DNA from: Eledone cirrhosa
Taxonomy: Eukaryota
Assembly (NCBI GenBank): GCA_964016885.1
Contig: OZ024764.1
Coordinates: 5,332,001-5,396,000, forward strand
Length of the DNA: 64,000 bases
Reading direction: 5' to 3'
In this document: positions 6,269 through 59,557 of the stretch, in pieces
How positions within the stretch are numbered: the stretch's first letter is position 1
How the letters are laid out: every line of letters begins with the position of its first letter
Notes under the pieces: generated by a model
What the model was told of the DNA's origin: nothing
Databases searched by the model: none
What the model saw: only the letters and a program-made list of their open reading frames with translations
Program-made: the position numbers and the translations under genes

Positions 6269-6385
6269 CCTTGAAACCTTAAGTCCCTTTTGCTCTGTGT
6301 ATGAACAGAAATAAATAATGTAATATATATATATGTGTGTGTGTGTATCTATTTATATATTTAACTATATTTTTTGTAATCACAG

Positions 6386-6427
6386 GAGACTTGATATGGA
6401 GAGAGATCTTTTATACTTCGATTATAG
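6386..6427 (+). CDS. Putative micro-exon 1 (42 nt, phase 2-2; RLDMERDLLYFDY)
   Basis: TTTAACTATATTTTTTGTAATCACAG | 42 nt | GTAAGT. Confidence 0.7.
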
Positions 6428-6544
6428 GTAAGTTTTAGTTTTACACACTATCTAACCTTTATACAATCTGCTCCTTCCCGTCTCTCTCTCTCTCTCTCTC
6501 TCTCTATTGCTCCAGTTTACTCAGCTGTAGAAATGAGATGATAG

Positions 6545-6577
6545 GATATGCTTCACTAATATAAAAAAGAAATTGAT
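6545..6577 (+). CDS. Putative micro-exon 2 (33 nt; ICFTNIKKKL), native acceptor replaced by SINE sequence
   Basis: GATGATAG | 33 nt | GTAAGT. Same exon as 40547-40579, which has a normal acceptor. Only phase 2 is open. Confidence 0.45.
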
Positions 6578-6966
6578 GTAAGTGTTACCTTAACATACTG
6601 TCTAACCATTGTTTAATCTGCTCCTTCCTCTACCTCTCCCTTTATACACACACACACATATATACCCCTATATATATATGTATACACACACACACACAAA
6701 TATATACACATATATACACACATATATATATAATCACATATATATATACATATATACAAGCGAGACACGGCCTGCTGACCAATCTCGCCTTAAGTGGGAC
6801 AAAACCGTCCAACCCATGCTAGCATGGAAGATGGACTTTAAATGATGATGATATATACACACTGACACATATATATACATATATATATACACATATATAT
6901 ACGCATATATTTATACATATATATATATACACATATATATCCGCATATATATATATATATATATAT

Positions 6967-7078
6967 GAGTTCAAGTCCGCCGAGGTTAACTTTGCCTTTC
7001 ATCTTTACGAGGTCGATAAAATAAAGTACCAGTGGTGTACTGGGGTAATCGCTGGCCTTGTGCCAAAAGTAGAAACTA
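6967..7078 (+). mobile_element. SINE fragment (B box plus Deu/Nin-like domain); copies near 9688, 23637, 26367, 40927, 43556, 56966
   Basis: GAGTTCAAGTCC B box, then TTTGCCTTTCATCTTTACGAGGTCGATAAAATAAAGTACCAG, recognised from memory as the Deu/Nin SINE core. Confidence 0.65.
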
Positions 7079-7191
7079 TAATTATATATATATAACCAAA
7101 GATTAATATAGTTCGTTGATTACTCAACGAATACAGTTGTACAATAGATTAGAAGAACTCAACAGTGAAAGTTTTCCTGGACTTTTTAATA

Positions 7192-7445
7192 TTAACAAAT
7201 GAAAAATATTCTCATAATCAAAATATATACTTTATTATATACATTTCAAAGGTATATGACATACCTCTACGGTCTTGATTCTTCAATTCCAGTATTGCAG
7301 TCACTGCCAATACTGGAATTGAAGAATCAAGACCGTAGCGCTATGTCATAATCATATATTTTGTCTGATGAGGACGTACTGAAAAAACAACAATATATAT
7401 AATAAAGTATATATTTTGATTATGCGAATACTTTTCATTTGTTAA
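7192..7445. repeat. About 254-bp fold-back containing decayed hammerhead halves; copies at 23864-24117, 41154-41407, 43787-44040, 57191-57444
   Basis: Outer arms TTAACAAATGAAAAATATT...ATTATATA and inner arms CTACGGTCTTGATTCTTCAATTCCAGTATTG are each matched by a reverse complement. Confidence 0.9.
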
Positions 7446-7456
7446 CATTTTGAATA

Positions 7457-7504
<48 letters not shown>

Positions 7505-7570
7505 AGGTAAAATGAATAATGAAAGAGTTGCAAGCCTTTAAAACATATCTTTATAAAGCTCTTACATATG

Positions 7571-7629
<59 letters not shown>

Positions 7630-7633
<4 letters not shown>

Positions 7634-7860
7634 CATTTTATGTCCGCTTTTCCCTGCTTGCAAGGGTTGGGCTCTCACCACCACTGGCCATGATTTTCGT
7701 GGTCTTCCTTTTACTGGGATTTTTTAGCACCTCTTTACCCAGCAGTCATCCTCGGTGCACATCACTTGTCCATACCATCTCAGTCTTCTCTCCTGCACAC
7801 CACAACTCATCCCCAGTTTCTCTCTCAACTCATCTATGGTCTTGTTGTTCACGCACATTG
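7630..7860 (-). mobile_element. Short RTE 3' fragment; copies near 10130, 24310, 26810, 41535, 44745, 45530, 57630
   Basis: IDELREKLG..C.VQERRLRWYGQVM plus a GCAAGCAGGGAAAAGCGGACATAAAATGAT tail. Confidence 0.75.
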
Positions 7861-7894
<34 letters not shown>

Positions 7895-9319
7895 TAATTC
7901 TATTGACTGATTAATAGCTCTTGTTAATTTTAAAACCATTCTGTTGAGAGCTTAATTCGTTCTGTGATATTTTGCAATTTTGCAATAACACACATACTGA
8001 ATTCATCCGCCAAAACTAAGGGCTGCCCCCCCCCCCCCCCCCCCTGTGAAGCCCCACGTGGGTTTTGATAACGGTCAGTCCTTGGCTTGGCACTGAACTA
8101 AAAGCCTGTTGAGAAAGTGACTTCCTTGTTCGATCATCATACCAAAAGCTTAACATTATTTGTCTAAGTAGACAGTACTTGATTTAGGAGTTGCAGAAAC
8201 CCAATACTGGATATTACCAACCTTCCAGGGGTCCGGGTATAATTTTCCATCATATTTTATTTGTTTTACTCGAATTACTTGGTCGTGTCTATGGCTGTGC
8301 GGATAATTGTTTAACCATCGTCTCAGTGTGTTTGGCCTTTTAACTTATGTTGTTGCTCTAGTTCACTAGCTTCTATGGAGCGCCTGCCACACATCTCGGA
8401 AGTTGTTTTTCGTTAATTTCCAATAGCAGAAATGCAATTCTCGCTAATTTATATATATATATATATATATATATACACGTATAAGGGATAACAAAATATC
8501 GTTATAGGTAATCCAGGTAGAAGTTGTGAATACTCTGTATTGTGGTTAGTCTTAGTCTACGGCGTTGTTTGACTCAACAAGAGGTTTCCGTAGGTGGCAA
8601 GTATTTGAGTTCTCTTGAATTTCTATGTAAGTTTATCTTGGAGTAATAATATTGAAAGCGTGAAGAATAACATGGTCAACAGTACAAAAGAAGGTTTTTA
8701 TTTACAGTATTAACAATTGTTTCACTGATTAAGTTGTCTAAAAATCGCTGAAAACTTAAAGCTGTGCCACTCAATCTACTATATATATTGGAAGTGGTCG
8801 GACGTTGTATATTTAAGTAAATAAGTAGGTGTAGTCGGATAAACGTCGAAACGGCTTGGTAGAATGCAGCGAAAATTTACACAGTTATGCAGAATTGTAG
8901 CAGTTAATGATGATATATATGTAAAAGAAATAGGATTTCGCTTCAAGCATATCTTTATACAATATGTATAAATATTTTGTATCTCCAAAGAAATACGGTT
9001 TTAGGAAGCCTTAGCTCTGCAAACCCTGGGGGGCTAACGTCCTCTGGTGATGTCCAGCAGAAGCAAGGGGGACAACCGTCTATGCATTTCAGGCTTAACT
9101 GACCATCGTCTGGACAGTCCCTCCCACTGCTTGCGACTGCTGGCCAGTTAAGCGTGAAATGCATAGACGGTTGTCCCCCTTGCTTCTGCTGGACATCACC
9201 AGAGGCCTTGAAACCCTAAGTCCCTTTTGCTCTGTGTATGAACAGAAATAAATAATGTAATATATATATATGTATGTGTGTATCTATTTATATATTTAAC
9301 TATTTTTTTCTCATTACAG

Positions 9320-9352
9320 CACCAATCATTCCTTCGCTTACAAGAAATTTAT
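9320..9352 (+). CDS. Putative micro-exon 3 (33 nt; TNHSFAYKKF)
   Basis: TTTAACTATTTTTTTCTCATTACAG | 33 nt | GTAAGT. Confidence 0.7.
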
Positions 9353-10397
9353 GTAAGTGTTACCTTAACAAACTGTCTAACCATTGTTTAATCTGCTCCT
9401 TCCTCTACCTCTCCCTTTATACACACACACACATATATACCCCTATATATATATGTATACACACACACACACAAATATATACACATATATACATATATAT
9501 ATACACACATATACATATATACAAGCGAGACACGGCCTGCTGACCAATCTCATCTTAAGTGGGACAAAACCGTCCAACCCATGCTAGCATGGAAGATGGA
9601 CTTTAAATGATGATGATATATATACACTGACACATATATATACATATATACAAATATATATACGCATATATCTATATATATATATATGAGTTCAAGTCCG
9701 CCGAGGTTAACTTTGCCTTTCATCTTTACGAGGTCGATAAAATAAAGTACCAGTGGTGCACTGGGGTAATCGCTGGCCTTGTGCCAAAAGTAGAAACTAT
9801 ATTTATATATATATAACCAAAGATTAATATGGTTCGTTGATTACTCAACGAATACAGTTTTACAATAGATTAGAAGCACTCAACAGTGAAATTTTCCTGG
9901 AGTTTTTAATATTATTCAAAATATTAACAAATGAAAAATATTCTCATAATCAAAATATATACTTTATTATATACATTTCAAAGGTATATGACATACCTCT
10001 ACGGTCTTGATTATTCAATTCCACTATTGGCAGTGACTATATATTTATAGGCAAAATGAATAATGAAAGAGTTGCAAGCCGTTAAAACATATCTTTATAA
10101 AGCTCTTACATATGTTATATATATATATATCATCATCATCATTATATGTCCGCTTTTCCCTGCTTGCAAGGGTAGGGCTCTCACCACCACCGGCCATGTT
10201 TTTTGTGGTCTTCCTCTACTGCGTCTTCCTTCTACTGGGATTTTTTAGCACCTCTTTACCCAGCGGTCATCCTCGATGCACATCACTTGTCCATACCATC
10301 TCAGTCTTCTCTCCTGCACATCACAACTTATCCCCAGTTTCTCTCTCAACTCATCTATGCTCTTGTCGTTCACGCACATTGACACACACACATACAC

Positions 10398-10428
<31 letters not shown>

Positions 10429-10654
10429 TATAAGGGATAACAAAATATCGTTATAGGTAATCCAGGTAGAGGTTGTGAATACTCTGTATTGTGGTTAGTC
10501 TTAGTCTACGGCGTTGTTTGACTCAACAAGAGGTTTCCGTAGGTGGCAAGTATTTGAGTTCTCTTGAATTCCTATGTAAGTTTATCTTGGAGTAATAATA
10601 TTGAAAGCGTGAAGAATAACATGGTCAACAGTACAAAAATAGGTTTTTATTTAC

Positions 10655-10760
10655 AGTATTAACAATTGTTTCACTGATTAAGTTGTCTAAAAATTGCTGA
10701 ACACTTGAAGCTGTGCCACTCAATTTTAAATATGTTGTTAGCTTAACCAGATCATCAGAA

Positions 10761-10764
<4 letters not shown>
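10655..10764 (-). ncRNA. Degenerate type I hammerhead ribozyme with extended stem II; copy at 27336-27445
   Basis: Minus strand: AATATT CTGATGA T CTGGTTAAG ... CTTAATCAG T GAAA CAATTG TT AATACT. The base pair closing stem II is lost. Confidence 0.5.
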
Positions 10765-10805
<41 letters not shown>

Positions 10806-11269
10806 TACAAATTATGTCCATAGAACCATTTGATAAGATATATACACCATTTCCTCTCCCAATTAGCATAATCAACCACACAAAAAATCAATTAGGCCAG
10901 GCTATAAGATTAAAAGGCACCTATGATAAAATAGTAGATAAATAAACGACAGCATTTCAATAGCATGTGGAAATCAATTAAATATATCGTCAACCATACA
11001 CAATTAGGTATAAAATTAAAGTTAGAAGAAAAAATGCATATACACATACCAGGATTACGTTTCTACGCTTTAGGGTTTCGTTTGCATTTGGAAATATACT
11101 ATCAAGGATAAATTCGATATAAATTCTATAAATTTATCAAGGATAAATTTATAGTATATTGCTCTGATTATTTAATTTATTAATTCATCATTGAGCCACA
11201 TCGTGAATGGTTGCCAAAAACATATATATCTATGACTTTGTCTAGTTTGTGTATATGTAAATCTTTATA

Positions 11270-11362
11270 TTGATTGTTCCTTATGTAGCACAGCCTTTCA
11301 GATTCCATCTTTGCGCACAAGTCTACAGCAAGCTGGTTGAAGAGTACTCTTGCACGGTGGAA
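11270..11362 (-). mobile_element. Helitron Rep/Hel N-terminal coding scrap; copy at 27971-28063
   Basis: RVLFNQLAVDLCAKMESERLCYIRNNQ resembles the Helitron motif LFQQ..VD.YAKIESERL.FIR.NQ (recalled, not searched). Confidence 0.65.
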
Positions 11363-11365
11363 CAG

Positions 11366-12826
11366 CAACGTAGTAAGTAAGGCAATCAAAGATATGAAGA
11401 TGGGGAAGGCAACCGGTCCATCGGGTATAGCTGCCGAGATGCTGAAGGCATCTGGGTCTGTAGGTCACACTATAACCACACGTATTGTTAACCAGGTAAT
11501 ACTAGAAGGTGTCATACCAAAAGATTGGTGCAGTAGCATCATTGTCAACTGCTACAAAAGTAAAGGTGATGCACTAGATAGAGGAAACTATAGAGGTATA
11601 AAGCTGATGGACCAGGTCATGAAAGTAACAGAAAGAGTTATAGCACAGTTGAAGAGGCACCACTGATGCCCTCTTCCTTGTCAGGCAGTTACAGGAAAAG
11701 TACCTAGCTAAAAGTAAGCCACTCTACCTGGCATTTGTCGACCTTGAGAAAGCCTTTGACAGAGTTCCACGTGCTGTAATCTGGTGGGCTCTTAGAAAAC
11801 TAGGAGTAGATGAATAGCTTGTGAAAGTGGTACAAGCCATGTATAGGGGAGCAGTCAGCAAAGTTAGGATTAGCAATGAGTATAGCGAGGAATTTAGCGT
11901 ACAGGTTGGGGTCCATCAGGGCTCTGTTCTTAGCCCCCTCCTGTTCATCATTGTCCTGCAGGCAATAACGGAGGACTTTAAGACCGGATGCCCATGGGAA
12001 CTCCTGTATGCTGATGACCTCGCACTTATAGCTGAATCTATGGTAGAACTAGAGAAGAAATTCCAAACTTGGAAGCAGGGACTAGAAAGAAAGGGTCTCA
12101 AAGTCAACATGACAAAGACTAAGGTCCTTGTAAGTAGACGAGAAAACAGAACCCAGATCCCCTCAGGGAAATGGCCTTGCTCAGTATGTAGGAACTCCAT
12201 TCTCTGCCCCAAATGCAAACAATGAGTACACAAGAGATGTAGCGGGATCTCAGGAAGCTTAATTAAGAATGTAGGCTTCACATGCAGCAGCTGTGCTGGG
12301 ACAGCAAGCAGCAAACAGCCACAGGAAACAAGTACCACCAATCTCTGGGAGGGCTCTGTAGAAACAGTAGACAGCTTCTGCTACCTAGGTGACCGAATTA
12401 GCAGCGGAGGTGGGTGTTCAGAAAGTACAATAACTAGGGTAAGAATGGAATGGAAGAAGTTTAGGGAACTACTATCACTGCTAGCTGCAAAAGGCTTCTC
12501 CCTCAAAATGAAAGGCAGACTGTATGATGCGTGTATCCGAACAGCGATGTTGCATGGTAGTGAGACCTGGGCTCTGAAGGTGGAAGACTTACGTAGATTA
12601 GAGAGAAACGAAGCCTGCATGCTCCGATGGATGTGTAACAGTAATATACGCGAACGACAAAGCATAAATGAATTGAGAGACTGAGCATAAGAGGAATCAA
12701 ATGCTGTGTGCAGGAGAGGCGGTTGCGCTGGTATGGACATGTGATGCGTATGAAGGATGACAGCTGCATAAAAAGGTGCAGAGCACTAGAAGTCGATGGA
12801 AACCGCGGAGTGGAGGGACCCAAGAT
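11366..12826 (+). mobile_element. RTE LINE RT pseudogene
   Basis: KATGPSGIAAEMLK, NYRGIKL, FVDLEKAFDRV, GVHQGSVLSPLLF, YADD, YLG and LHGSETW, with stops and deletions. Confidence 0.92.
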
Positions 12827-13204
12827 GAGGAGAGAAAGAGTGTGAGAGAGAGAGAGTGAGATAAAGAGAGGGAGTGAAAGAGAGAAATAGAGGGATTGAG
12901 AGAGATACATTAAAACAATAACAGAAGGTCTGACTGGAGAATTTACTTTAGAATTTTAAGAGAAAAGAGGAAGGTTTCAGACTTCTGGAATTCCTTCACG
13001 AAAATGTCCTATATATCTGGAACACAAACTTCAAAAAATGAGACAACCACTTAATAACCTATAGATCATGTGAGCCCACCAGCTAGATAGATTTCATTGT
13101 TACCAGAAGACAGAGTGACTGTTATAAACACAATGTCCCTCCCTAGTGAAGAATGCACCTCCCAAAATACCTTAGAAGACAACCTGGAAGAAAAGAGTAG
13201 AGAT

Positions 13205-14065
13205 CAAAATCAAAAGGTCTTAAAGTCAATTTGGTAAAGACTAAAGTTCTAGTAAGTAGAAAGGAAAACTGGGCCCAGATCTCTTCAGGTAAACTGTCCT
13301 GCTCAGTGTGCAGAAAAGGAGTAGGTAGAAATTCCCATCCTATGTCCCATATAGAAATGATGGGTACACAAAAGATGTTGTGGGATCTCAGGGAGGCTAA
13401 CAAAGAACGTAGCTTCTACATGTGGCCAATGAACAGGAGCAGTAAATAACAAGAACTCTCAGGTTACAATCTCCTTCAAATACCCAGAAGTATCTGTAGA
13501 GGTGGTAGATAGTTTCTGTTACCTAGGTGACTAAATCAGCAGTGGAGTAGGGTGGTCCAAAAATTCAGTAACCAGAGTGAGATTAGATTGGAGAAAGTGC
13601 AGGGATCTACTACTACTGCAAACTACAAAACATTTTTCCATCAAAATGAAGGGCAGACTGTATGACGCAGGTATACAAACAACAATGTTGCACAGCAGCG
13701 AGACCTGGGCACTGTGTGTAGAAGATCTGTAAAGATTGGAAAGAAATGAGCCTCCATGCTTCAATGGATGTGCCATAGTAATATATGCAAATGGCAAAAC
13801 ATAAATGTACTGTGAGAGGATTTAGGCATAAGAGGGATTAGATGCAGTGTGCAGGAGTGGGATTGTTTTGGTATAGACATGTGATGTGTATGAAGGGTGA
13901 CAGCTGTATAAAAAGGTGCCAAACGCACAAAGTTGACAGAGGCCGTGGAGTGGGCAGGTCTAGGAAGACTTGGGATGAGGTAAGGAAAGCTGATTTTGTA
14001 CAATTACACCTAGCTAAGGCAATGACACAGGATGGTGACCTCTGGCGCTATGCACAATTATAGAG
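13205..14065 (+). mobile_element. RTE LINE 3' coding fragment
   Basis: KGLKVNLVKTKVL through DLWRYAQL, with several frameshifts. Confidence 0.85.
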
Positions 14066-14267
14066 GACTACATCCACAATCCACCAGACATTTTCCCTAC
14101 CAACACCCCACACAAGTTCCCAAACCTCACCATAAAGTGGTCCCGCTGCAGCCATGACAAACGTGTCCAGTCCACACTGTACAGTGGTCTTGTAGGTGTC
14201 TTGCCAAAAATCAATATTGGGCCTTAAAACCTTGAGTCCCTTTTGTTCTGTGTATGAACATAAATAA

Positions 14268-14455
14268 TTGTTTCTACTTTTGGCACAAGGCCAGCAATTA
14301 TCCAGTGCATTACTGGTACTTTATTTTATCGACCCCGTAAGGATGAAAAGCAAAGTTAACCTCGGCGGGATTTGAACTCAGATCATACAAGGAGGTAACT
14401 ATGCGTCAAAGCATGGCGTCCGACTCTCTACCGATACTGCCAATCCACCGCCACT
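14268..14455 (-). mobile_element. tRNA-derived SINE with Deu/Nin-like domain
   Basis: Minus strand has an A-box-like TGGCAGTATCGG, B box GAGTTCAAATCC and CTTTTCATCCTTACGGGGTCGATAAAATAAAGTACCAG. It is flanked by ATAAATAAT repeats. Confidence 0.7.
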
Positions 14456-14534
14456 GAATAAATAATGTAGTATATATATATATATTTGTGTGTGTATCTA
14501 TTTATATATTTAAGTATATTTTTTGTAATCACAG

Positions 14535-14576
14535 GACTGATACAGAGGAGGGTACCGCTCCAGAAAATAATGACGA
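14535..14576 (+). CDS. Putative micro-exon 4 (42 nt; TDTEEGTAPENND)
   Basis: TTTTTTGTAATCACAG | 42 nt | GTAAGT. Confidence 0.7.
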
Positions 14577-14640
14577 GTAAGTTTTAGTTTTACATACTAT
14601 CTAACCATTATTCTATCTGTTCCTTCCCGTCTCTCTCTCT

Positions 14641-14677
<37 letters not shown>

Positions 14678-14802
14678 AGGTGTATTACTGGTTGTGTAAA
14701 ACGGTCCAATAAATTTTTGTTAGCAATATTAAGTCTCCACGCTTTTGTATATCTCCAATTCCATTCAAGGGAACAGCTAGATGATGTAAAACGGAGTATT
14801 TC

Positions 14803-14903
14803 TATCAAAATGAAAATCCGAAGGCAAGGTAAAATTTCCAATCATTTTAATCACATCGTGATTAAAATGATTGGAAATCTTACCTTCCTTTGGATTTTCA
14901 TTT

Positions 14904-14908
<5 letters not shown>
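14803..14908. repeat. 106-bp palindrome; copies at 31649-31754, 50013-50119, 59785-59890
   Basis: TATCAAAATGAAAATCC...TTTTAATCAC ATC GTGATTAAAA...GGATTTTCATTTTGATA. Confidence 0.92.
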
Positions 14909-14946
<38 letters not shown>

Positions 14947-15165
14947 TAAGTTAAAAATGTACATCTACATATGCATACTGAAATACTAGTGTGTATATGA
15001 ATACACACACGTATACATATGTAGGTGTAACAAGTCTTTCACTGGTTGCTTTACTGTGAGCAACCCAGCTATTCCGTATGTAAACACACAGACAAACCGG
15101 TTTTTAGAGTCATACTGGTTTTCGGGGGAACACCTTCCCTCTATTCTCCAGAAAGTCAGACAAGG

Positions 15166-15210
15166 AATATTGAACTAGTTTCGTTGTTGTTACAACTCAT
15201 CAGCAATATT
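15166..15210 (-). ncRNA. Minimal type I hammerhead ribozyme
   Basis: Reverse complement of the motif at 15896-15940. Confidence 0.8.
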
Positions 15211-15895
15211 TACCTATCTACCGGCCCCTCTGGAGAATTGTAAAAGCACATATCGTTATATGCTTTTTCTATGAAAATTAGTAGTGGGCAGACTAATTTG
15301 CATAGAGTGTGAGTACGCACCGGTTCAGCGGAGACGATAAAAACAAATAACAAAACGAAATTAAATTTCGTTTCGTTTGTAACTCACTTTTGTATGACTG
15401 ACGCTTAAACAATTAAGTTAAAAATGTACATCTACATATGCATACTGAAATACTAGTGTGTATATGAATACACACACGTATACATATGTAGGTGTAACAA
15501 GTCTTTCACTGGTTGCTTTACTGTGAGCAACCCAGCTATTTTGTATGTAAACACACAGACAAACCGGTAGCTGGGTTGCTCACAGTAAAGCAACCAGTGA
15601 AAGACTTGTTACACCTACATATGTATACGTGTGTGTATTCATATACACACTAGTATTTCAGTATGCATATGTAGATGTACATTTTTAACTTAATTGTTTA
15701 AGCGTCAGTCATACAAAAGTGAGTTACAAACGAAACGAAATTTAATTTCGTTTTGTTATTTGTTTTTATCGTCTCCGCTGAACCGGTGCGTACTCACACT
15801 CTATGCAAATTAGTCTGCCCACTACTAATTTTCATAGAAAAAGCATATAACGATATGTGCTTTTACAATTCTCCAGAGGGGCCGGTAGATAGGTA

Positions 15896-15940
15896 AATAT
15901 TGCTGATGAGTTGTAACAACAACGAAACTAGTTCAATATT
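15896..15940 (+). ncRNA. Minimal type I hammerhead ribozyme
   Basis: AATATTG-CTGATGA-GTTG TAACAA CAAC-GAAA-C TA G-TT-CAATATT: 7-bp stem I, intact core, 4-bp stem II, palindromic ACTAGT stem III and a GUU cleavage triplet at 15931-15933. Confidence 0.82.
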
Positions 15941-16277
15941 CCTTGTCTGGCTTTCTGGAGAATAGAGGGAAGGTGTTCCCCCGAAAACCAGTATGACTCT
16001 AAAAACCGGTTTGTCTGTGTGTTTACATACGGAATAGCTGGGTTGCTCACAGTAAAGCAACCAGTGAAAGACTTGTTACACCTACATATGTATACGTGTG
16101 TGTATTCATATACACACTAGTATTTCAGTATGCATATGTAGATGTACATTTTTAACTTAATTGTTTAAGCGTCAGTCATACAAAAGTGAGTTACAAACGA
16201 AACGAAATTTAATTTCGTTTTGTTATTTGTTTTTATATATATATATATATATATATGACTCTGTCTCTTATAAACCA

Positions 16278-16540
16278 CGTTGGCTATTATGACACTCTCT
16301 CCAACACAGAGAGCTATGTTGGCTAATATGACTATCTCTCTCTATGTTGGCTATTATGACTCTCTCTCTCTCTCTCTCTCTCCCTCCCTCTCTATGTTGG
16401 CTAATATGACTCTCTCTCTCCCTCTCTATGTTGGCTATTATGACTCTCTCTCTCTCTATGTTGGCTATAATGACTCTCTCTCTCTCTATGTTGGCTATAA
16501 TGACTCTCTCTCTCTCTATGTTGGCTATTATGTCTCTCTC
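16278..16540. repeat. Composite minisatellite ATGTTGGCTA(T/A)(T/A)ATGAC + (TC)n; also 33591-33852, 50170-50822, 59960-60187
   Basis: A 17-bp core separated by variable-length (TC)n. Confidence 0.95.
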
Positions 16541-16895
16541 TGTTCAAGGTTTATGAAGTTAGATGAACATCTTCAAAGTCCTCCCATATTCGCCTCGTCT
16601 AATATGCGTTCTTGTACCTGATTATTCCCCCCAAATCTCCTGGGATGTTATAAGCCATGATGGCTACCTATCTCACAATTTCTCTCCTGCCCACCCCCTC
16701 ATACCACCATAGTCTATTCGACCAATCAAACCTCAGAAACATGTCCCCACCCATTACCAACCCCAACAAACTGCCATTACTACTACTTCTACTTTTCTTC
16801 TAGCCCTTACCAGCCCCAACAAACCCTGACATTATTACTACTATTGTCCTTCTAGCCATGGGCTGAGGATAAATGGGGCTACCCCAAATTAATAA

Positions 16896-18108
16896 ATGAA
16901 TATGAATCCGCAAGTTACCAAGCACCCATGCAAAGCTTTAATTCAGAGACAGGAAGCATACACACCCCACTGCAAAAATTCACCCTTTCCCACGAATGGT
17001 GGCAAATGCCCAAAACTCCGAGTTGGAACCATCAATGTAAGCACAATGAAAGGAAGAGCAGGAGAAATTGTAGAGATGCTAGAGCGAAAGAAAATTGATG
17101 TATGCTGTGTGCAAGAGACTAGATGGAGAGCAGAGTTCGCTGGAGTCCTTGCAGGCAGAAGTCAGTGCTACCAATTTGTCTGGGTAGCAAATGACAACAG
17201 GATGGGAGGTGTAGCTATCCTATTAGCTGACAAATGGGTAGATAAGGTAATCTCAGTGAACAGGGTGAATGCAAGAATAATGAAACTTGGACTAGTCCTG
17301 AATAAAACAATTGCCACAATAATATCAGCTTACGCACCCCAATTGGGGTTGCCAGCTGACTATAGCGGGGAATTTAGTTTAGAGGTCGGTGTCCACCAGG
17401 GCTCTGTTCTTAGCCCACTCCTGTTCGTTAAAGTATTGCAAGCAATAATGGCGGTGATTATGACCGGATGCCCATGGGAACTCCTATATGCGGATCATCT
17501 CACACTTATAGCCGAATCTATGGTGGAACTATACTTGCTCAGTATGTAGGAAAGGAGTAGGCTGGCTGCAAAAGGTTTTCCCCTCAAAATGAAAAGCAGA
17601 CTGTATGATGTGGGTATACGAATAGCAATGTTACATAGTAGTGAAACCTGGGCGCCGTCTGTGGAAGACTTGCATAGATTAGAAAGAAACGAAGCCTGCA
17701 TGCTCCGATGGATGTGTAATAGTAATATACGCAAACGGCAAAGCATAAATGAATTGAGAGAGTGACTGAGCATAAGAGGAATGAAATGCTGTGTGCAGGA
17801 GAGGATGTTGCATTGGACATGTGATGCGTATGAAGGATGACAGCTGTATAAAAAGGTGTAGAGCAGTAGAAGTCGATGGAAGCCGTGGAGTGGGGAGACC
17901 CAAGAAGAGCTGGGATGAGGTGATAAAAGCCGGACTCACTGTAAATGAGGTTGGTGTTAGGAAGGGCATCCAGCTGTAGGAATCAAGCCAGAATCAGTTC
18001 CTGTATGAGCAAGACAAGGTCAGCTGAACAGACACTGCCCACAACAGGACAACCCGTCTAACCCATGCTTGCGTGGAAGAATGGACGTAAAACAGTGATG
18101 AAGATGAT
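16896..18108 (+). mobile_element. Internally deleted RTE LINE (APE endonuclease N-terminus fused to RT motifs, then tail)
   Basis: LRVGTINV, IDVCCVQETRW and ISAYAPQ are joined directly to GVHQGSVLSPLLF and LLYADH. Confidence 0.9.
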
Positions 18109-18111
18109 ATA

Positions 18112-19943
18112 TCATATATGCTAGTGTACTATTTGACATTTGGAGCCTAAAAATATCTCTCCAAAACCAGGGGTCGACTTGTCTGCTGAATATAGTATGT
18201 TACCTTTACCACTGAGGGGTAAACAGTGAAACTGCCTGCCTAACACTTGTTGTACACCAGTTACCATAACTCTAGCAACCCACCACATTTATTTCTACTG
18301 AATCTCATATTTGTTAAGTTTAACGTAGAGATTATAGTAATATCAATGTCTTGCTGTAGCTTATAGGGTAGGTTACCATAGGGCAGGTTACTGTAGGGTA
18401 GGATACTGTCTGGTAGGTTACCATAGGGTAGGTTACTGTAGGGTAGGTTACTGTAGTGTAGGTTACTGTAGGGTAGGTTACTATAGGGTAGGTTACTGTA
18501 GGGTAGATTACTCTAGGCTAGGTTACCATAGGGTAGGTTACTGTAGTGTAGGTTACCATAGGGTAGGTTACCACAGAGTAGGTGACCATAGGGTATGTTA
18601 TTATAGGGTAGGTAACTGTAGGTTAGGTTACTGTAGGGTAGGTTACCTTATGGTAAGTTACTATAGGGTAGGTTACCATAGTGTAGGTTACCTTATGGTA
18701 AGTTACTATAGGGTAGGTTACCATAGGGTAGGTTACCTTATGGTAGGTTACTTTATGGTAAGTTACTATAGGGTAGGTTACCATAGGGTAGGTTACCTTA
18801 TGGTAAGTTACTATAGGGTAGGTTACCATAGTGTAGGTTACCTTATGGTAAGTTACTATAGGGTAGGTTACCATAGGGTAGGTTACCTTAGTGTAGGTAA
18901 GAATAGGGTAGGTTACCATAGGTTAGGTTACTGTAGGGTAGGTTAGCATAAGGTAGGTTACCATAGGGTAGGTTACTGTAGGGTAGGTTACCATAGGGTA
19001 GGTTACTGTAGGTAGGTTACCGTAGGTTAGGTTACTGTAGGGTAGGTTAACATAGGGTTGGTTACCATAGGTTAAGTTCATATAGGTTGTTACCATATGG
19101 TAGGTTACTGTAGGGTAGGTTGCTATAGGGTAGGTTATCGTAGAGTAGGTTACCATAAGGTAGGTTACCGTAGGGTAGGTTACTATAGGGTAGGGTATCA
19201 TAGGATAGGTTACCATAAGGCAGGTTACCATAGAGTAGGTTACCTTAGGGTAGTTTACTATAAGATAGGTTACCATAGTGTAGCTTACCATAGGGTAGGT
19301 TGTTACCATAGGCAAGGTTACTATAGGGTGGGTTACCATAGGGTAGTTTATGATATGGTTGGTTACCATAGTGTAGGTTACTATAACATAGGTTACCATA
19401 GTGTAGGATACCTTAGATTAGGTTACCACAGGATAGGTTACTGTAGGTTAGGTTACCATAGGTTAGGTTAGCAATGGGTAGGTTACTATAGGTTGTTACC
19501 ATAAGGTAGGTTACTGTATGGTGGGTTACCATAGGGTAGGGTACCATAAAGTAGGTTATTATAGTGTAGGTTACCTTAGGATAGGTAACCATAGGGTAGG
19601 TTACTATGGGGTAAGTTACCATAGGGTAGGTTCCCATAGGGTAGGTTAACATAAGCTAGGTTACCTCAGGGTAGGTTACCATACCATAAAGTAGGTTACC
19701 ATAGGTTTGTTAAGGTTAGGCTAGGCTGGTTTACTCGGTGAGTTAAAACTCACTTGTGACTGTAGTGTTTTAGAAGTGTCTCAATCTTTCATGCACCACT
19801 AAATTTTTTAACTATTTCCCCTGAAACTGCCTTATTTTTGGGGGTCATCTTATCAATCGAATAGCGTCCTAAATCTAAATTATACTTCAGAATTTTAGGG
19901 GCCGACTTATGTACCGGATAGACTTGTACACCGGCATATATGG
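18112..19943. mobile_element. pogo/Tigger-like non-autonomous DNA transposon with internal 15-bp satellite
   Basis: Left end TA|TCATATATGCTAGTGTAC and right end GACTTGTACACCGGCATATATGG|TA are imperfect TIRs with TA on both sides and subterminal GGGG(T/C)CGACTT motifs. Confidence 0.7.
18362..19720. repeat. 15-bp tandem satellite
   Basis: Same unit as 984-1940. Confidence 0.97.
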
Positions 19944-19962
19944 TATATATATATATATGCAT

Positions 19963-20297
19963 GGAGGCACATGGCTTAGTGGTTAGAGCATTGGTCATGC
20001 AATCGAAAGGTTGTGAGTTCAATTCTCAGACCGGGTGATGTGTTGGTTCCTTGAGCAAGACACTTTATTTCACATTGCTCCAGTTTACTCAGCTGTAGAA
20101 ATGAGATGATAGGGACTGGGGTCCCTATCATTCCACTGCAAAGTGGTCGTGGAGGTGCCACGGCAAAAAAAGCACCCAGCACTCACTGTAAATGAGGTTG
20201 GTGACAGGAAGGGCATACAGCTGTAGAAATCAAGCCAGAATCAGTTCCCGTCCCGCCCTTGCAAGCAGGGAAAAGTGGACGTAAAATGAAATGATGA
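19963..20297 (+). mobile_element. tRNA-derived SINE with RTE-like tail; copy at 37274-37608
   Basis: A box TGGCTTAGTGG, B box GAGTTCAATTC, central CCTTGAGCAAGACACTT domain, and a tail shared with the RTE 3' UTR. Confidence 0.8.
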
Positions 20298-20596
20298 AAG
20301 AGAGATAGAGAGAAAGAGAGGGAGTGAGAGAGATACATTAAAACAATAACAGAAGGTCTGACTGGAGAATTTACTTTAGAATTCCTTCACGGAAATGTCT
20401 TATTTATCTGTAACACAAACTTCAAAAAACAAGACAACCACTTAATAATCGATAGATCAAGTGAGCCCTCCAGCTAGATAGATTTCCTTGTTACCAGAAG
20501 ACAGAGTGACTGTTATAAACACAAAGTCCTTCCCTAGTGAAGAATGCACCTCCCAACATACCTTAGAATACAACCTGGAAGAAAAGAGTATAGATC

Positions 20597-21190
20597 AAAA
20601 TCAAAAGGTCTTAAAGTCAATTTGGTAAAGACTAAAGTTCTAGTAAGTAGAAAGGAAAACAGGGCCCAGATCTCTTCAGGTAAACTGTCCTGCTCAGTGG
20701 GCAGAAAAGGAGTAGGTAGAAATTCCATCCTATGTCCCATATAGAAATGATGGGTACACAAAAGATGTTGTGGGATCTCAGGAAGGCTAACAAAGAACGT
20801 AGCTTCTACATGTGGCCAGTGAACAGGGGCAGGAAATATCAAGAGCTCTCGAGTTACAATCTCCTTCAAATGCCCAGAAGTCTCTGCAGAGGTGGTAGAT
20901 AGTTTCTGTTACCTAGGTGACTAAATCAGCAGTGGAGGAGGGTGGTCCAAAAACTCAGTAACAAGAGTGAGATTAGATTGGAGAAAGTGCAGGGATCTAC
21001 TACTACTGCTAACTACAAAACATTTTTCCATCAAAATGAAGGGCAGACTGTATGATGCAGGTATACAAACAACAATGTTGCACAGCAGCGAGACCTGGGC
21101 ACTGTGTGTAGAAGATCTGTAAAGATTGGAAAGAAATGAAGCCTCCATGCTTCAATGGATGTGCCATAGTAATATATGCAAATGGCAAAA
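20597..21190 (+). mobile_element. RTE LINE fragment; copy at 37908-38500
   Basis: KGLKVNLVKTKVL...LERNEASMLQWMC, fused to satellite. Confidence 0.85.
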
Positions 21191-21620
21191 CATAGGTTAC
21201 CATTGGGTAGGTTACTGTAGGGTAGGGTACCATAGGGTGGGTTACCATAGGGTAGGTTACTGTATGGTAGGTTACATTTCGTTAGGTTACTGTAGGGTAG
21301 GTTACCATAGGGTAGGTTACCATAGGGTAGGTTACTGTAGGGTAGGTTACCATAGGGTAGTTATGTAGGGTAGGTTACCATAGTGTAGGTTACTGTAGGG
21401 TAGGTTACCATAGAGTAGGATACTGTAGGGTAGGTTACCATAGGTTAGGTCACTGTAGGGTAGGTTACCATAGGGTAGGTTATTATAGGGTAGGTTACCA
21501 TAGGTTAGGTTACTATAGGGTTGGTTGCCATAGGGTATGTTACCATAGGGTAGGTTACTATAAGGTAGGTTACCATACCATAGGTTAGGTTACCATATGT
21601 TTGTTAAGGTTAGGCTAGGC
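21191..21620. repeat. 15-bp tandem satellite
   Basis: Same unit as 984-1940. Confidence 0.95.
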
Positions 21621-21769
21621 TGGTTTACTCGGTGAGTTAAAACTCACTTGCGACTGTAGTGTTTTAGAAGAAGTGTCTTAATCTTTAGTGCGCCACTAAA
21701 TTTTTTAACTATTTCCCCTGAAACTGCCTTATTTTTTGGGTGTCGTCTTATGAATCGAATAGTGTCGTA

Positions 21770-22705
21770 TAGGACTATCTGGCATGTTTTCTATGGCTGG
21801 ATGCCCTTCCTAACACCAACCACGTTTACAGTGTGGGGACTGGGAGGTTTTTACCATGTTAACTACACGGCCAATTTACAGCGTGGACTGTGTGTTTTAT
21901 TGTCATGACACCTACACAACCTCATTTATTTAGGACTGGATGTTGTGTGACCAACATAATTTTACAGAGATGGGGGTGGGAGTAGTGGGGTGGGGGCGTA
22001 TATTTGGTTAAGAGGTGCCTACTGACTGTAGGTTTCGCTTTGTACTTAGGCAAGGGTGGTCTTCTGTATTACTGCGTAGCGCCAAAGATCTCGGTTCAGT
22101 GACATTGTCTTGGAGAGGTGTAAGTGTGTGAGATCGGAATTTATCAATTCGTCCCAGGGTTTTCTGGGTCTGCCTACTCCGTGGCTACCATCTATTTTGA
22201 TCGCCCTGCACTTTTTTATACAGCTGTCGTCTTTCATGCGCATCATGTGACCATACCAACGTAGTCTTCTCTCGAGTAAACAACATCTGATCCCTCTTAT
22301 TCCTAATTTCTCACTTAGTTCATTTATGCTTTGCCGTTCACGTATATTACTATTACACATCCAGCGGAGCATGCAAACTTCATTCCTCTCCAGTCTGCGT
22401 ATATCCTCTGCACACAATGCCCAAGTCTCACTGCCATGTAACATTGTTGTTCGTATGCAGGCATCATACAGCCTGCCTTTCATTTTTAGAGAGAACCCTT
22501 TAGCGGCCAATCGTACAATGAAAAGAGCGTCTGTGATACTTTTACCTGACACAAACCCAAACTGCATTTCATCTAGATCAATTCTCTCTCTGATTAGTTG
22601 CGCTATTACTTTTTCTGTGACCCTCATGAACTGGTCAATTAATTTAATGCCTCTATAGTTTCCCCTATCTAGGGCATCTCCTTTACCCTTGTAGCAGTTA
22701 ATGAT
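21770..22705 (-). mobile_element. RTE LINE fragment with internal deletion; copy at 39195-40135
   Basis: ORF 22046-22759: NYRGIKL, QFGF, DALFIVR fused to LAAKGFSLKMKGRLY. Confidence 0.88.
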
Positions 22706-23119
22706 GATGATATATATATAAAAGAAATAGGATTTCGCTTCAAGCATATCTTTATACAATATGTATAAATATTTTGTATCTCCAAAGAAATACGGTTTTA
22801 GGAAGCCTTAGCTCTGCAAACCCTGGGGGGCTAACGTCCTCTGGTGATGTCCAGCAGAAGCAAAGGGGACAACCGTCTATGCATTTCAGGCTTAACTGGC
22901 CATCGTCAGGACAGTCCCTCCCACTGCTTGCGACTGCTGGCCAGTTAAGCGCGAAATGCATAGATGGTTGTCCCCCTTGCTTCTGCTGGACATCACCAGA
23001 GGCCTTGAAACCCTAAGTCCCTTTTGCTCTGTGTATGAACAGAAATAAATAATGTAATATATATATATGTGTGTGTGTGTATCTATTTATATATTTAACT
23101 ATATTTTTTGTAATCACAG

Positions 23120-23161
23120 GAGACGTGATATGGAGAGAGAACTTTTATGCTTTGATCATCC
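23120..23161 (+). CDS. Putative micro-exon 5 (42 nt; RRDMERELLCFDH)
   Basis: TTTTTTGTAATCACAG | 42 nt | GTAAGT. Phase 0 is closed by TGA. Confidence 0.7.
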
Positions 23162-23268
23162 GTAAGTTTTAGTTTTACACACTATCTAACCTTTATAGAA
23201 TCTGCTCCTTCCCGTCTCTCTCTCTCTCTATTGCTCCAGTTTACTCAGCTGTAGAAATGAGATGATAG

Positions 23269-38499: not shown

Positions 38500-39040
38500 A
38501 TAGGTTACCATTGGGTAGGTTACTGTAGGGTAGGGTACCATAGGGTGGGTTACCATAGCGTAGGTTACTGAATGGTAGGTTACATTTCGTTAGGTTACTG
38601 TAGGGTAGGTTACCATAGGGTAGGTTACCATAGGGTGGGTTACCATAGGGTAGGTTATTGTAGGGTAGGTTATTGTAGGGTAGGTTACCATAGGGTAGAT
38701 ATGTAGGGTAGGTTACCATAGTGTAGGTTACTGTAGGGTAGGTTACCATAGAGTAGGATACTGTAGGGTAGGTTACCATAGGGTAGTTATGTAGGGTAGG
38801 TTACCATAGTGTAGGTTACTGTAGGGTAGGTTACCATAGAGTAGGATACTGTAGGGTAGGTTACCATAGGTTATGTCACTGTAGGGTAGGTTACCATAGG
38901 GTAGGTTATTATAGGGTAGGTTACCATAGGTTAGGTTACTATAGGGTTGGTTGCCATAGGGTATGTTACCATAGGGTAGGTTACTATAAGGTAGGTTACC
39001 ATACCATAGGTTAGGTTACCATATGTTTGTTAAGGTTAGG
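38500..39040. repeat. 15-bp tandem satellite
   Basis: Same unit; longer than its paralogue at 21191. Confidence 0.95.
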
Positions 39041-40546: not shown

Positions 40547-40579
40547 GATATGCTTCACTAATATAAAGAAGAAATTGAT
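40547..40579 (+). CDS. Putative micro-exon 9 (33 nt; ICFTNIKKKL)
   Basis: TTTTTCTCATTACAG | 33 nt | GTAAGT. Phases 0 and 1 contain TAA. Confidence 0.72.
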
Positions 40580-43206: not shown

Positions 43207-43233
43207 CTGGTTTAATAGACTAAAGAAATTGAT
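43207..43233 (+). CDS. Putative micro-exon 10 (27 nt; WFNRLKKL)
   Basis: TTTTTCTCTTCACAG | 27 nt | GTGAGT. Phases 0 and 1 contain TAA; the length change is a multiple of 3. Confidence 0.72.
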
Positions 43234-45950: not shown

Positions 45951-48044
45951 TGTTGTACACCAGTTACCATAACTCTAGCAACCCACCACATTTATTTCTA
46001 CTGAATCTCATATTTGTTAAGTTTAACGTAGAGATTATAGTAATATCAATGTCTTGCTGTAGCTTATAGGGTAGGTTACCATAGGGTAGGTTACTGTAGG
46101 GTAGGTTACCATAGGGTAGATAGTGTCTGGTAGGTTACCATAGGGTAGGTTACGATAGGGTAGGATAGTGTCTGGTAGGTTACCATAGGGTAGGTTACTG
46201 TAGGGTAGGTTACCATAGGGTAGATAGTGTCTGGTAGGTTACCATAGGGTAGGTTACGATAGGGTAGGATACTGTAGGGTAAGTTACTGGAGGGTAGGTT
46301 ACCATAGGGTAGGTTACCATTGGGTAGGTTATTATAGGGTAAGTTACTGGAGGGTAGGTTACCATAGGGTAGGTTATTATAGGGTAGGTTACCATAGAAT
46401 AGGTTACTGTAGGGTATTTTACCATAGGGTAGGTTACCATAGGGTAGGTTACCATAGGTAGGTTACCTTAGGGTAGGTGACCATAGTGTAGGTTACCATA
46501 GATTAGGTTCTGTATGGTAGGTTAGGTTACTATAGGGTAGGTTACCATAGGGTAGGTTAAGATAGGGTTGGTTGCCATAGGGTAGGTTACCATAGCGTAG
46601 GTTACTATTGGGTAGGTTACCATAGGGTAGGTTACTGTAGGTTAGGTTACGTAGGGTAGGTTACCATAGGGTAGGTTGCCATAGAGTAGGTTATTATAAG
46701 GTAGGTTACCATAAGGTAGATTACCTCAGGGTAGGTTACTGTAGGGTAGGTTACCATGGGGTAGGTTACCATAGGGTAGGTTACTGTAGGGTAGGTTACC
46801 ATAGTGTAGGTTACCTTAAATTAGGTTACCACAGGATAAGTTACCATATGGTAGGTTACTGTAGGTTAGGTTACCATAGGTCAGGTTACCATAGGTTAGG
46901 TTACCATAGGGTAGGTTACTATAGGTTGCTACCATTGGGTAGGTTACTGTAGGGTAACATAGGTTACCATAGTGTAGGTTAATATAACATAGGTCACCAT
47001 AGTGTAGGTTACTTTAGATTAGGTTACCATAGGGTAGATTACCACAGGATAGGTTACCATAGGGTAGGTTACTATAGGTTGTTACCATAGGGTAGGTTAC
47101 GATATGGTTGGTTACCATAGTGTAGGTTACTATAACACTGGTTACCTTAATTTAGGTTACCGTATCGTAGGTTACTGTAGGTTAGGTTACCATAGGGTAG
47201 GTTACTATAGGGTAGGCTACCAATGATAGGTTACCCTAGGGTAGGTTACCACAGGATATGTTACCATAGGGTAGGTTACTGTAGGGTAGGTTACTATAAC
47301 ATAGGTCACCATAGTGTAGGTCACTTTAGATTAGGTTACCATAGGGTAGGTTACCACAGGATAAGTTACCATATGGTAGGTTACTGTAGGTTGTTACCAT
47401 AGGCTAGGTTACTATAACATAGGTTACCAAAGTGTAGGTTTCTATAGGTTGTTACCATAGGGTAGGTTACTGTAGGGTAGGTTACCATAGGGTAGGAGGA
47501 TACTGTAGGGTAGGATACTGTAGGGTAGGTTACTGTAGGGTAGGTTACCGTAGGGTAGGTTACTGTAGGGTAGGTTACCATAGGGTAGGATACTGTAGGG
47601 TAGGTTACTGTAGGGTAGGTTACCATAGGGTAGGTTATTATAGTATAGGTTACCGTAGGGTAGGTTTCCATGAAGTAGGTTACTATAAGTTAGGTTACCA
47701 TAGGGTAGGTTTCCATGAAGTAGGTTACCACAGGGTAGGTTAACATAAATTAGGTTACCTTAGGGTAGGTTACCATAAGTTAGGTTACCATACGGTAGGT
47801 TACCATAGGTTTGTTAAGGTTAGGCTGGTCTACTCGGTGAGTTAAAACTCACTTGTGACTGTAGTGTTTTAGAAGAAGTGTCTCAATCTTTCGTGCACCA
47901 CTAAATTTTTTAACTATTTCCCCTGAAACTGCCTTATTTTGGGGAGGTTATCTTATCAATCGAATAGCGTCCTAAATCTAAATTACACCTCAGAATTTTA
48001 GGGGCCACGCTATGTACCGGATAGACTTGTACACCGGCATATAT
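45951..48044. mobile_element. pogo/Tigger-like element, left end deleted, with 15-bp satellite (about 46065-47820)
   Basis: Right TIR GACTTGTACACCGGCATATA retained; longest satellite array in the window. Confidence 0.65.
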
Positions 48045-49767: not shown

Positions 49768-49809
49768 GACTGATACAAAGGAGAGTACCGCTCCAGAAAA
49801 GAATGACGA
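49768..49809 (+). CDS. Putative micro-exon 11 (42 nt; TDTKESTAPEKND)
   Basis: TTTTTTGTAATCACAG | 42 nt | GTAAGT. Confidence 0.72.
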
Positions 49810-51380: not shown

Positions 51381-52170
51381 GTAGGGTAGGGTACCATAGG
51401 GTAGGTTACTGGAGGGTAGGTTACAGTAGGTTAGGGTACCATAGGGTAGGTTACTGGAGGGTAGGTTACCATAGGGTAGGTTACCGTAGGGTAGGTTACT
51501 GTAGGGTAGGTTACCATAGGTTATGTTACCATAGGGTAGGTTATTATAGGGTAGGTTATTATAGGGTAGCTTACAATAGGCTAGGTTACCATAGGTTAGG
51601 TTACTATAGAATAGGTTACAATAGAGTAGGTTACCAGAGGGGAGGTTACGATAGGGTTGGTTACCGTAGGGTAGGTTACTGTAGGGTAGGTTACTATAGG
51701 GTGGGTTACCATAGGGTAGGTTACTGTAGGGTAGGTTACCATAGGGTAGGTTACCATAGCGTAGGTTACTATAGGGTAGGTTACTGTAGGGTAGGTTACC
51801 ATAGGGTAGGTTACTGTAGGGTAGGTTACTATAGGGTAGGTTACCACAGCGTAGGTTACTATAGGGTAAGTTACCATAGGTTATGTTACCATAGGGTAGT
51901 TTACCGTAGGGTAGGTTACCACAGCGTAGGTTACTATAGGGTAGGTTACTGTAGGGTAGGTTACCGTATGGTAGGTTATTATAATATAGGTCACCATAGG
52001 GTAGGTTACCGTAGGGTAGGTTACCATAGGTTAGGTTACTGTAGGGTAGGTTACGATATGGTAGGTTACCATAGAGTAGGTTACCATGGGATAGGTTGCC
52101 ATAGGGTATGTTACCATACCATAGGGCTGGTTACCATAGGGTAGGTTACCATATGTTTGTTAAGGTTAGG
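51381..52170. repeat. 15-bp tandem satellite
   Basis: Same unit as 984-1940. Confidence 0.97.
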
Positions 52171-56591: not shown

Positions 56592-56624
56592 GATACACTT
56601 CACTAATAGACAAAAGAAATTGAT
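56592..56624 (+). CDS. Putative micro-exon 12 (33 nt; IHFTNRQKKL)
   Basis: TTTTTCTCATTACAG | 33 nt | GTAAGT. Phases 0 and 1 contain stops. Confidence 0.72.
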
Positions 56625-59515: not shown

Positions 59516-59557
59516 GACTGATACAAAGGAGAGTACCGCTCTAGAAAAGAATGAGGA
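59516..59557 (+). CDS. Putative micro-exon 13 (42 nt; TDTKESTALEKNE)
   Basis: TTTTTTGTAATCACAG | 42 nt | GTAAGT. Phase 0 has TGA and phase 1 has TAG. Confidence 0.72.

Follow-up and report, generated by a model that had tools for sequence, protein, structure and literature searches.

Closest Described Systems

Members of the M13 (neprilysin/ECE) family, including Drosophila Gone early, are described in passages of PMC2259306 and PMC11266112 as having a type II membrane anchor, VNAFY/ENIAD motifs and conserved cysteines, and as showing lineage-specific expansion with catalytically altered copies; VNAFY, ENIAD and HExxH are given as family motifs in the former (PMC2259306, in part). A predicted anchor of this kind, the motifs, cysteines, expansion and altered copies recur in a group of paralogous genes of Eledone cirrhosa, one of which is here called gene A. 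The 64,000-nt stretch analysed (the window; positions 5,332,001-5,396,000 of contig OZ024764.1, C25 below) lies entirely, from 1 to 64000 on the + strand, inside the micro-exon array of this gene, which occupies C25 4,871,418-5,399,533, or ~530 kb. What sets gene A apart from the family is a tail made of ~107 micro-exons, or cassettes, over 530 kb, with tail and anchor evolving fastest; in the altered copies the Glu alone is replaced (by K in gene A and by Q in gene C), with the zinc histidines intact. The N-terminal tails of known M13 proteins are short. Cassettes of the array differ by up to 50% while the introns flanking them are ~99% identical.

Very small symmetric exons permitting in-frame skipping, fast evolution and transposon-rich introns are also found in the micro-exon genes (MEGs) of schistosomes, which passages of PMC4350168 describe as restricted to flatworms, present in secretions or glands, and having a coding region mostly of micro-exons. 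Compared by description, the present array differs: it is predicted to encode the cytoplasmic portion of a membrane-bound pseudo-peptidase, no signal exon was found, and a constant part of ~630 aa follows. A preliminary description of this stretch had named divergence faster in exons than in introns as a hallmark of diversifying selection in MEGs, among other genes; what the passages of PMC4350168 give is a high dN/dS (the ratio of non-synonymous to synonymous rates), and they contain no exon-versus-intron test.

In gibbon L/M opsins, synonymous and non-synonymous exon divergence are both raised, which passages of PMC3213168 attribute to intron conversion. The catarrhine L/M opsins resemble the array in that exon divergence of both kinds exceeds that of introns and the introns carry a recombination signal (PMC3213168, in part), a likeness that holds for class B of the two cassette classes defined below and not for class A. 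They are two genes with ~6% synonymous exon divergence according to the same passages, whereas here there are ~100 cassettes in one gene, divergence of up to 50%, indels that keep the frame, and one class in which dN exceeds dS. Tetherin/BST-2, a type II protein with antagonist-driven positive selection in its cytosolic tail and transmembrane domain (passages of PMC3087111), is a functional analogy only, unrelated in sequence and having no exon array. Conotoxin precursors are built of signal, pro and mature exons (PMC3862624, in part), unlike gene A, in which no signal exon was found and which has 12 Cys among ~1,200 cassette residues. No M13 gene with a micro-exon array was found in the literature searched, most subscription papers lying outside that search. 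Dscam1 and the clustered protocadherins share with gene A the tandem variable exons feeding one constant region; their arrays encode extracellular recognition domains of ~100 aa or more, whereas the cassettes here encode 9-26 aa and are predicted to be intracellular. The gene is a member of the M13 family, not a MEG, a Dscam or a conotoxin gene, and its architecture is a new variation.

The Cassettes

Eleven standard cassettes lie in the window, together with two whose acceptor derives from a short interspersed nuclear element (SINE):

6386-6427, +, class A cassette, fixed length of 42 nt, RLDMERDLLYFDY
6545-6577, +, class B cassette of 33 nt with SINE-derived AG acceptor, ICFTNIKKKL; not listed in the preliminary description
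9320-9352, +, class B cassette of 33 nt, TNHSFAYKKF
14535-14576, +, class A cassette of 42 nt, TDTEEGTAPENND
23120-23161, +, class A cassette of 42 nt, RRDMERELLCFDH
23269-23301, +, class B cassette of 33 nt with SINE-derived acceptor
25995-26027, +, class B cassette of 33 nt, same sequence as 9320
31383-31424, +, class A cassette of 42 nt, same sequence as 14535
40547-40579, +, class B cassette of 33 nt, ICFTNIKKKL
43207-43233, +, class B cassette of 27 nt, WFNRLKKL, with a GTGAGT donor
49768-49809, +, class A cassette of 42 nt, TDTKESTAPEKND
56592-56624, +, class B cassette of 33 nt, IHFTNRQKKL
59516-59557, +, class A cassette of 42 nt, TDTKESTALEKNE

In all, gene A has 107 cassettes (103 standard and 4 with a SINE-derived acceptor) at a median spacing of 6.1 kb, and 119 were parsed from four paralogs: 103 from gene A, 6 from locus B, 1 from C and 9 from D. 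A donor-flank pattern run against the whole genome (3.0 Gb in 1796 contigs) gave 99 exact matches, all on C25, and its reversed control gave 0.

Class A cassettes, mostly acidic or Ser/Thr-rich, have a fixed length, which is 42 nt except in gene D, where it is 36 nt; those of class B measure 27-36 nt (78 nt where two are fused) and end in basic and then hydrophobic residues; the overall span is 27-78 nt (9-26 aa). YxxPhi motifs occur in 21 of 46 class B cassettes, and motifs resembling the immunoreceptor tyrosine-based inhibitory or switch type (ITIM/ITSM-like) in six. NxS/T sequons are present in 23 of the 46, most of them from one exon family. The exons appear as mosaics of 5' and 3' halves. 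The five 78-nt cassettes (C25 4,952,553, 4,968,128, 4,985,029, 5,066,424 and 5,306,123) are apparent fusions of two class B exons, joined through an 18-nt acceptor remnant with the frame kept.

All cassettes are symmetric, in phase 2-2, so that a split codon contributes one nucleotide to the start of each and two to its end. None of the 119 has a stop in frame 1; of 56 distinct exons, 41 have one in the second of the three frames or third, and 22 in the remaining frame. No combination of cassette ends and starts yields a stop at a junction codon; the probability that 332 changes would produce no stop by chance is ~1e-6. Splice sites are nearly invariant and indels come in multiples of three. 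Lengths are divisible by 3 except in three broken-donor copies of a 53-nt form; donor damage affects these three as well as two copies of class A. Joined, the 98 canonical cassettes would encode 1,293 aa.

Divergence of Exons and Flanks

The claim of the preliminary description that the micro-exons diverge faster than their introns holds across the array. Among 93 neighbour pairs, picked by similarity of their distal flanks (a choice that biases flank rates downward), the exons show 332 differences in 3566 sites (9.3%) and the flanks 0.4-0.8% in each of five distance bins reaching to 1200 nt, so that exon divergence is ~16x the flank rate; the proximal bins, not used in choosing pairs, are equally low (0.4-0.8%). 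An unselected all-pairs test of class B (820 pairs) gave averages of 37% for exons and 2.0% for flanks. Islands with at least 20% difference were seen in 21 of 93 exon pairs as against 0 of 4820 flank windows, and divergence drops to background at the splice sites. Where flanks differ by 0.2-0.5%, class B exons already differ by 25%, and 17 class B cassettes with flanks <1% from one reference encode 13 different peptides. Twenty of 102 exon changes adjoin another change. Between 15 and 20% of informative flank site pairs are incompatible, which indicates recombination in the flanks.

All pairwise counts of the preliminary description were reproduced, as was the 3' end common to cassettes 9320, 40547 and 43207. 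The pair 6386/23120 differs at 7 of 42 exon sites and, in 200 nt of masked flank on either side, at 7 of 352 (Fisher p=1.9e-4), and the pair 40547/56592 at 5 of 33 and 4 of 304 (p=6.4e-4). Six of the seven changes in the former had been assigned to amino-acid-changing codons; four are non-synonymous, one is synonymous and two fall in the split junction codon. For 14535/49768 (3 of 42) and 49768/59516 (2 of 42) the counts are right, without a significant excess over the flanks (p=0.19 and 0.33), and two identical pairs, 14535/31383 (0 of 42) and 9320/25995 (0 of 33), had been omitted.

Two other causes were rejected, and a third found no support. Splice-signal constraint does not explain the low flank divergence, as distal flanks are conserved like proximal ones; CpG hypermutation would cover only 7 of 102 changes; and adenosine-to-inosine (A-to-I) editing with conversion from complementary DNA is not supported, A/G changes making up 29 of 102 in exons and 264 of 1117 in flanks.

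Selection on the Two Classes, the Anchor and the Ectodomain

Proportions of non-synonymous (pN) and synonymous (pS) differences were counted by class over 67 of the 93 pairs, the other 26, with >25% exon difference or unequal length, being left out. Over all cassettes there are 73 non-synonymous and 20 synonymous changes (78.5% non-synonymous, with 72-79% expected), giving a dN/dS of 1.0-1.4 (p=0.10-0.57); the earlier statement that changes are almost all non-synonymous therefore fails as a general one, and its own 12:1 codon tally has p=0.10-0.20.

The classes behave differently. In class A, pN is 0.020, pS 0.007 and flank divergence 0.005, so that the synonymous rate equals the flank rate; with 38 non-synonymous to 4 synonymous changes, dN/dS is 2.8-3.7 (p=0.004-0.026), and these counts, a textbook mark of positive selection, support diversifying selection on the fixed-length class A exons. 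In class B, pN is 0.055, pS 0.08-0.10 and flank divergence 0.0024; the ratio is 35:16, dN/dS is 0.56-0.75, 11 of the 34 codons that changed carry synonymous changes only, and synonymous divergence is >30x the flank rate, which fits homogenisation of the introns by recombination. Between paralogs the transmembrane exon has a pN of 0.40-0.44 at a flank divergence of 0.04, with pS also high and alignment-sensitive, and diversifying selection is supported there as well. The diversifying selection proposed in the preliminary description is accordingly upheld for class A and the paralogs' transmembrane exon and not for class B. In the ectodomain, pN between paralogs is 1.6-1.9x the intron value (p<=6e-5 in 5 of 6 pairs) with only in-frame indels, and in 5 of 6 pairs pN and pS are nearly the same.

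Gene A and Its Predicted Topology

Gene A consists, in order, of a short ATG exon, the cassette array, a transmembrane exon and 19 M13/neprilysin-like exons. Its landmarks are:

C25 4,866,209-4,866,252, ATG exon, ending in phase 2
C25 5,413,283-5,413,395, transmembrane exon, entered in phase 2, best 19-aa hydropathy 2.9
C25 5,618,006-5,618,073, zinc-motif exon, HKIFH, PF01431 E=4e-4
C25 from 5,629,413, ending near 5,629,521, last coding exon

The ATG exon, of 44 nt, has an in-frame stop preceding the ATG and a phase-2 donor; it is single-copy, which rules out alternative first exons. The last cassette lies 13.7 kb from the transmembrane exon, in a compatible phase, and from the transmembrane segment to the stop there are 20 exons, all stop-free and phase-consistent; these transmembrane and M13 exons 3' of the array make up ~630 aa of constant sequence. 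VNAFY and QENIAD motifs are present. Single exons matched PF01431 with E values of 4e-4 and 0.013 in gene A, 4e-5 in C and 2.1e-5 in B (24.7 bits against a cut-off of 24.5), 4 of 8 exons matching, and PF05649 with E=0.0099 (1 of 10 exons); a PDB search with the gene's exons placed ECE-1 and neprilysin at the top.

Gene A has one hydrophobic segment (Kyte-Doolittle 2.9), and its C-terminal domain bears ectodomain-type sequons and cysteines. No plausible signal-peptide exon was found upstream (one low-complexity match), and none inside the array. Because the cassettes are N-terminal of the single anchor and no signal-peptide exon was found, the array is predicted, by analogy with family topology, to encode the cytoplasmic tail of a type II membrane protein. 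The cassettes are thus predicted to be in-frame symmetric micro-exons of an M13 gene, encoding the tail of a probably inactive membrane protein.

Paralogs and Neighbouring Sequence

Searches with the transmembrane and zinc exons located four paralogs on C25. The zinc motif reads HKIFH in gene A, HQIFH in gene C, and HEIFH in genes B and D; with HKIFH replacing HExxH, the product of gene A is likely to be inactive as a peptidase. M13 ectodomain cysteines pair in disulfides. Counting the last exon, there are six ectodomain cysteines in genes B, C and D and five in A; two residues that paralog B retains, the catalytic Glu and one of the cysteines, have been lost from gene A. Gene B is an inverted copy, ~1% diverged, with an intact catalytic motif, four cassettes before the anchor and a duplicated 5' piece (untranslated exon, ATG exon and first two cassettes, 52 kb apart, within C25 7,254,000-7,308,000). 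In the sequence examined, no ATG exon could be located for paralogs C and D, nor could exon 12 of D. A PF01431 profile search of the genome returned 13 places on contigs C3 and C24 but missed all four genes on C25. Canonical motifs are present at the C24 locus that was examined, which makes the C25 family a divergent lineage. In the ESM Atlas there was no match of at least 0.9.

The exon after the zinc motif (C25 5,620,916 in gene A, and its counterparts in the paralogs) forms a second divergence island near the active-site region, with pN 0.21 between A and C and 0.30 between C and D, and lengths of 116, 83 and 119 nt. An M13 intron contains a 46-bp satellite whose tandem units reproduce the 3' splice site and opening bases of one exon, so that the true acceptor comes at the end of hundreds of sites resembling it. 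In gene A it occupies C25 5,458,426-5,495,955 and 5,600,012-5,617,352 with 817 and 378 units (the 104 kb between excluded); there are 128 units in B, 34 in C and 65 in D.

The window itself consists of retroelement fragments and satellites arranged in duplicated blocks on the kilobase scale that are 93-99.6% identical. Strongly G-skewed arrays of a degenerate 15-bp satellite mark the duplication units (984-1921, 18363-19683, 21193-21577, 35674-36994, 38501-39003, 46066-47809, 51382-52153 and 62185-63074). A broken retroelement fragment not of the long-terminal-repeat type lies at 11839-12198 (RVT_1, E=2.4e-15), with related fragments throughout the introns, and a 467-bp element is repeated in tandem and in inverted orientation at 14950-16240 and 32416-33551.

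Discussion

The explanation favoured here, with a probability of roughly 0.6, is that the array grew by unequal crossing-over, that tail and anchor are under diversifying selection, and that the introns keep being converted while the exons are spared. Unequal crossing-over would have amplified a tail of roughly four exons, such as paralog B has, and selection would have driven amino-acid change in the cassettes; once a cassette had diverged, selection and sequence mismatch would have halted conversion tracts at its edges, so that synonymous differences would persist too. Since the cassettes can be joined in any order without loss of frame, alternative splicing would yield tails in great variety, of up to ~1,290 aa, and the YxxPhi motifs in many cassettes would alter trafficking or signalling partners. 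The ectodomain would serve binding rather than cutting, as is suggested for Gone early in passages of PMC11266112. The most likely driver would be an intracellular conflict, such as an antagonist targeting tail and membrane anchor. A bolder reading, which we regard as unlikely, is a Dscam- or MEG-like generator of intracellular diversity in one gene, with a dead peptidase ectodomain and a tail spliced combinatorially from ~100 micro-exons, many of which carry tyrosine motifs; a process confined to the exons would rewrite their cores 50-100x faster than the surrounding DNA changes.

Several points weigh against the favoured explanation. The overall dN/dS of 1.0-1.4 matches the neutral expectation and is not significant; overall, then, the outcome is the one that the preliminary description had named as refuting its reading (near 1 with more copies), and among the two classes class A (2.8-3.7) alone exceeds it. 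The p-values are optimistic, as spanning-tree edges share events. No shoulder of raised divergence, the usual trace of selection against conversion, is seen beside the exons (0.4-0.8% at 0-100 nt), and exon jumps in young pairs are very large. The transmembrane exon is single-copy in each gene, and the paralogs are 2 and 20 Mb off, so that homogenisation is less easily invoked. Topology and function are predicted. Word-index searches with single-exon queries, of weak sensitivity, found no true relative, and a search of representative proteins returned two repetitive ones, judged on inspection to be chance matches. RNA runs contain 0.06-0.08 of the stretch's words, with 0 contigs placed from the two tried, and are uninformative on expression; among 24 sequencing runs, only three (of unknown kind, from one sample) contained at least one third of the words, and the two of these that were placed gave DNA-like repeat coverage.

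The array might instead be young, its exons mutating faster through an exon-targeted process (short-tract templated conversion or local hypermutation) and being filtered for an open frame. Divergence that ends at exon edges, class B exons 25% diverged at 0.2-0.5% flank divergence, synonymous sites raised >30-fold, adjoining changes (20 of 102), mosaic-like 5'/3' halves, the same island pattern in the single-copy transmembrane exon, and the missing shoulder and very large jumps noted above all speak for it; we nevertheless consider it unlikely, given the clear recombination in the flanks, a class A synonymous rate equal to that of the flanks, and the lack of an A/G bias, which leaves templating from A-to-I-edited RNA unsupported. 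Rather less probable is a tail without adaptive diversification, a loosely constrained in-frame spacer at whose divergent exons intron conversion stalls mechanically. That reading would account for an overall dN/dS near 1 and 0.56-0.75 in class B, for the near-equality of pN and pS that the ectodomain shows in 5 of 6 paralog pairs, and for the loss in gene A of the catalytic Glu and a Cys kept in paralog B, and the cytosolic part of the inactive M13 protein Gone early is dispensable (passages of PMC11266112); it is at odds with a class A pN above both pS and flank, a transmembrane-exon pN ~10x the flank rate and an ectodomain pN above that of introns (p<=6e-5 in 5 of 6 pairs), and the initial divergence would still need some seed.

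The preliminary description had inferred a product acting in venom, immunity, or gamete or self recognition, which amounts to a secreted venom or surface-recognition polypeptide with its variable exons facing outside the cell. Sequons in 23 of 46 class B cassettes could be read this way, and conotoxins combine conserved introns with variable coding parts (PMC3862624, in part), but the sequons come mostly from one exon family, no signal-peptide exon was found upstream (one low-complexity match) or in the array (0), and the cassettes precede the single anchor, with ectodomain sequons and cysteines in the C-terminal domain; the cassettes being predicted to be cytoplasmic, this reading is very improbable. 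More improbable still is that the cassettes do not code for protein, being repeats or pseudo-exons, or that they are errors of assembly. The RNA runs placed no contigs (0, from 2 runs) and DNA contigs were placed over only part of the stretch, as such a reading would allow, yet the open frame in 119 of 119, triplet indels, near-invariant splice sites and recurrence in all four paralogs argue that the cassettes are coding.

Large arrays of variable exons usually diversify extracellular recognition surfaces; here it is the intracellular tail and anchor of a pseudo-peptidase that are predicted to be diversified, and a pattern of exons evolving faster than introns does not by itself indicate venom. 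Within a single locus an island of divergence the size of an exon is repeated ~100 times, giving natural replicates in two classes that differ in signature, and a paralog that is 99% identical, with only four cassettes and an intact catalytic motif, is there for comparison, so that selection, intron homogenisation and targeted mutation can be tested directly against one another.

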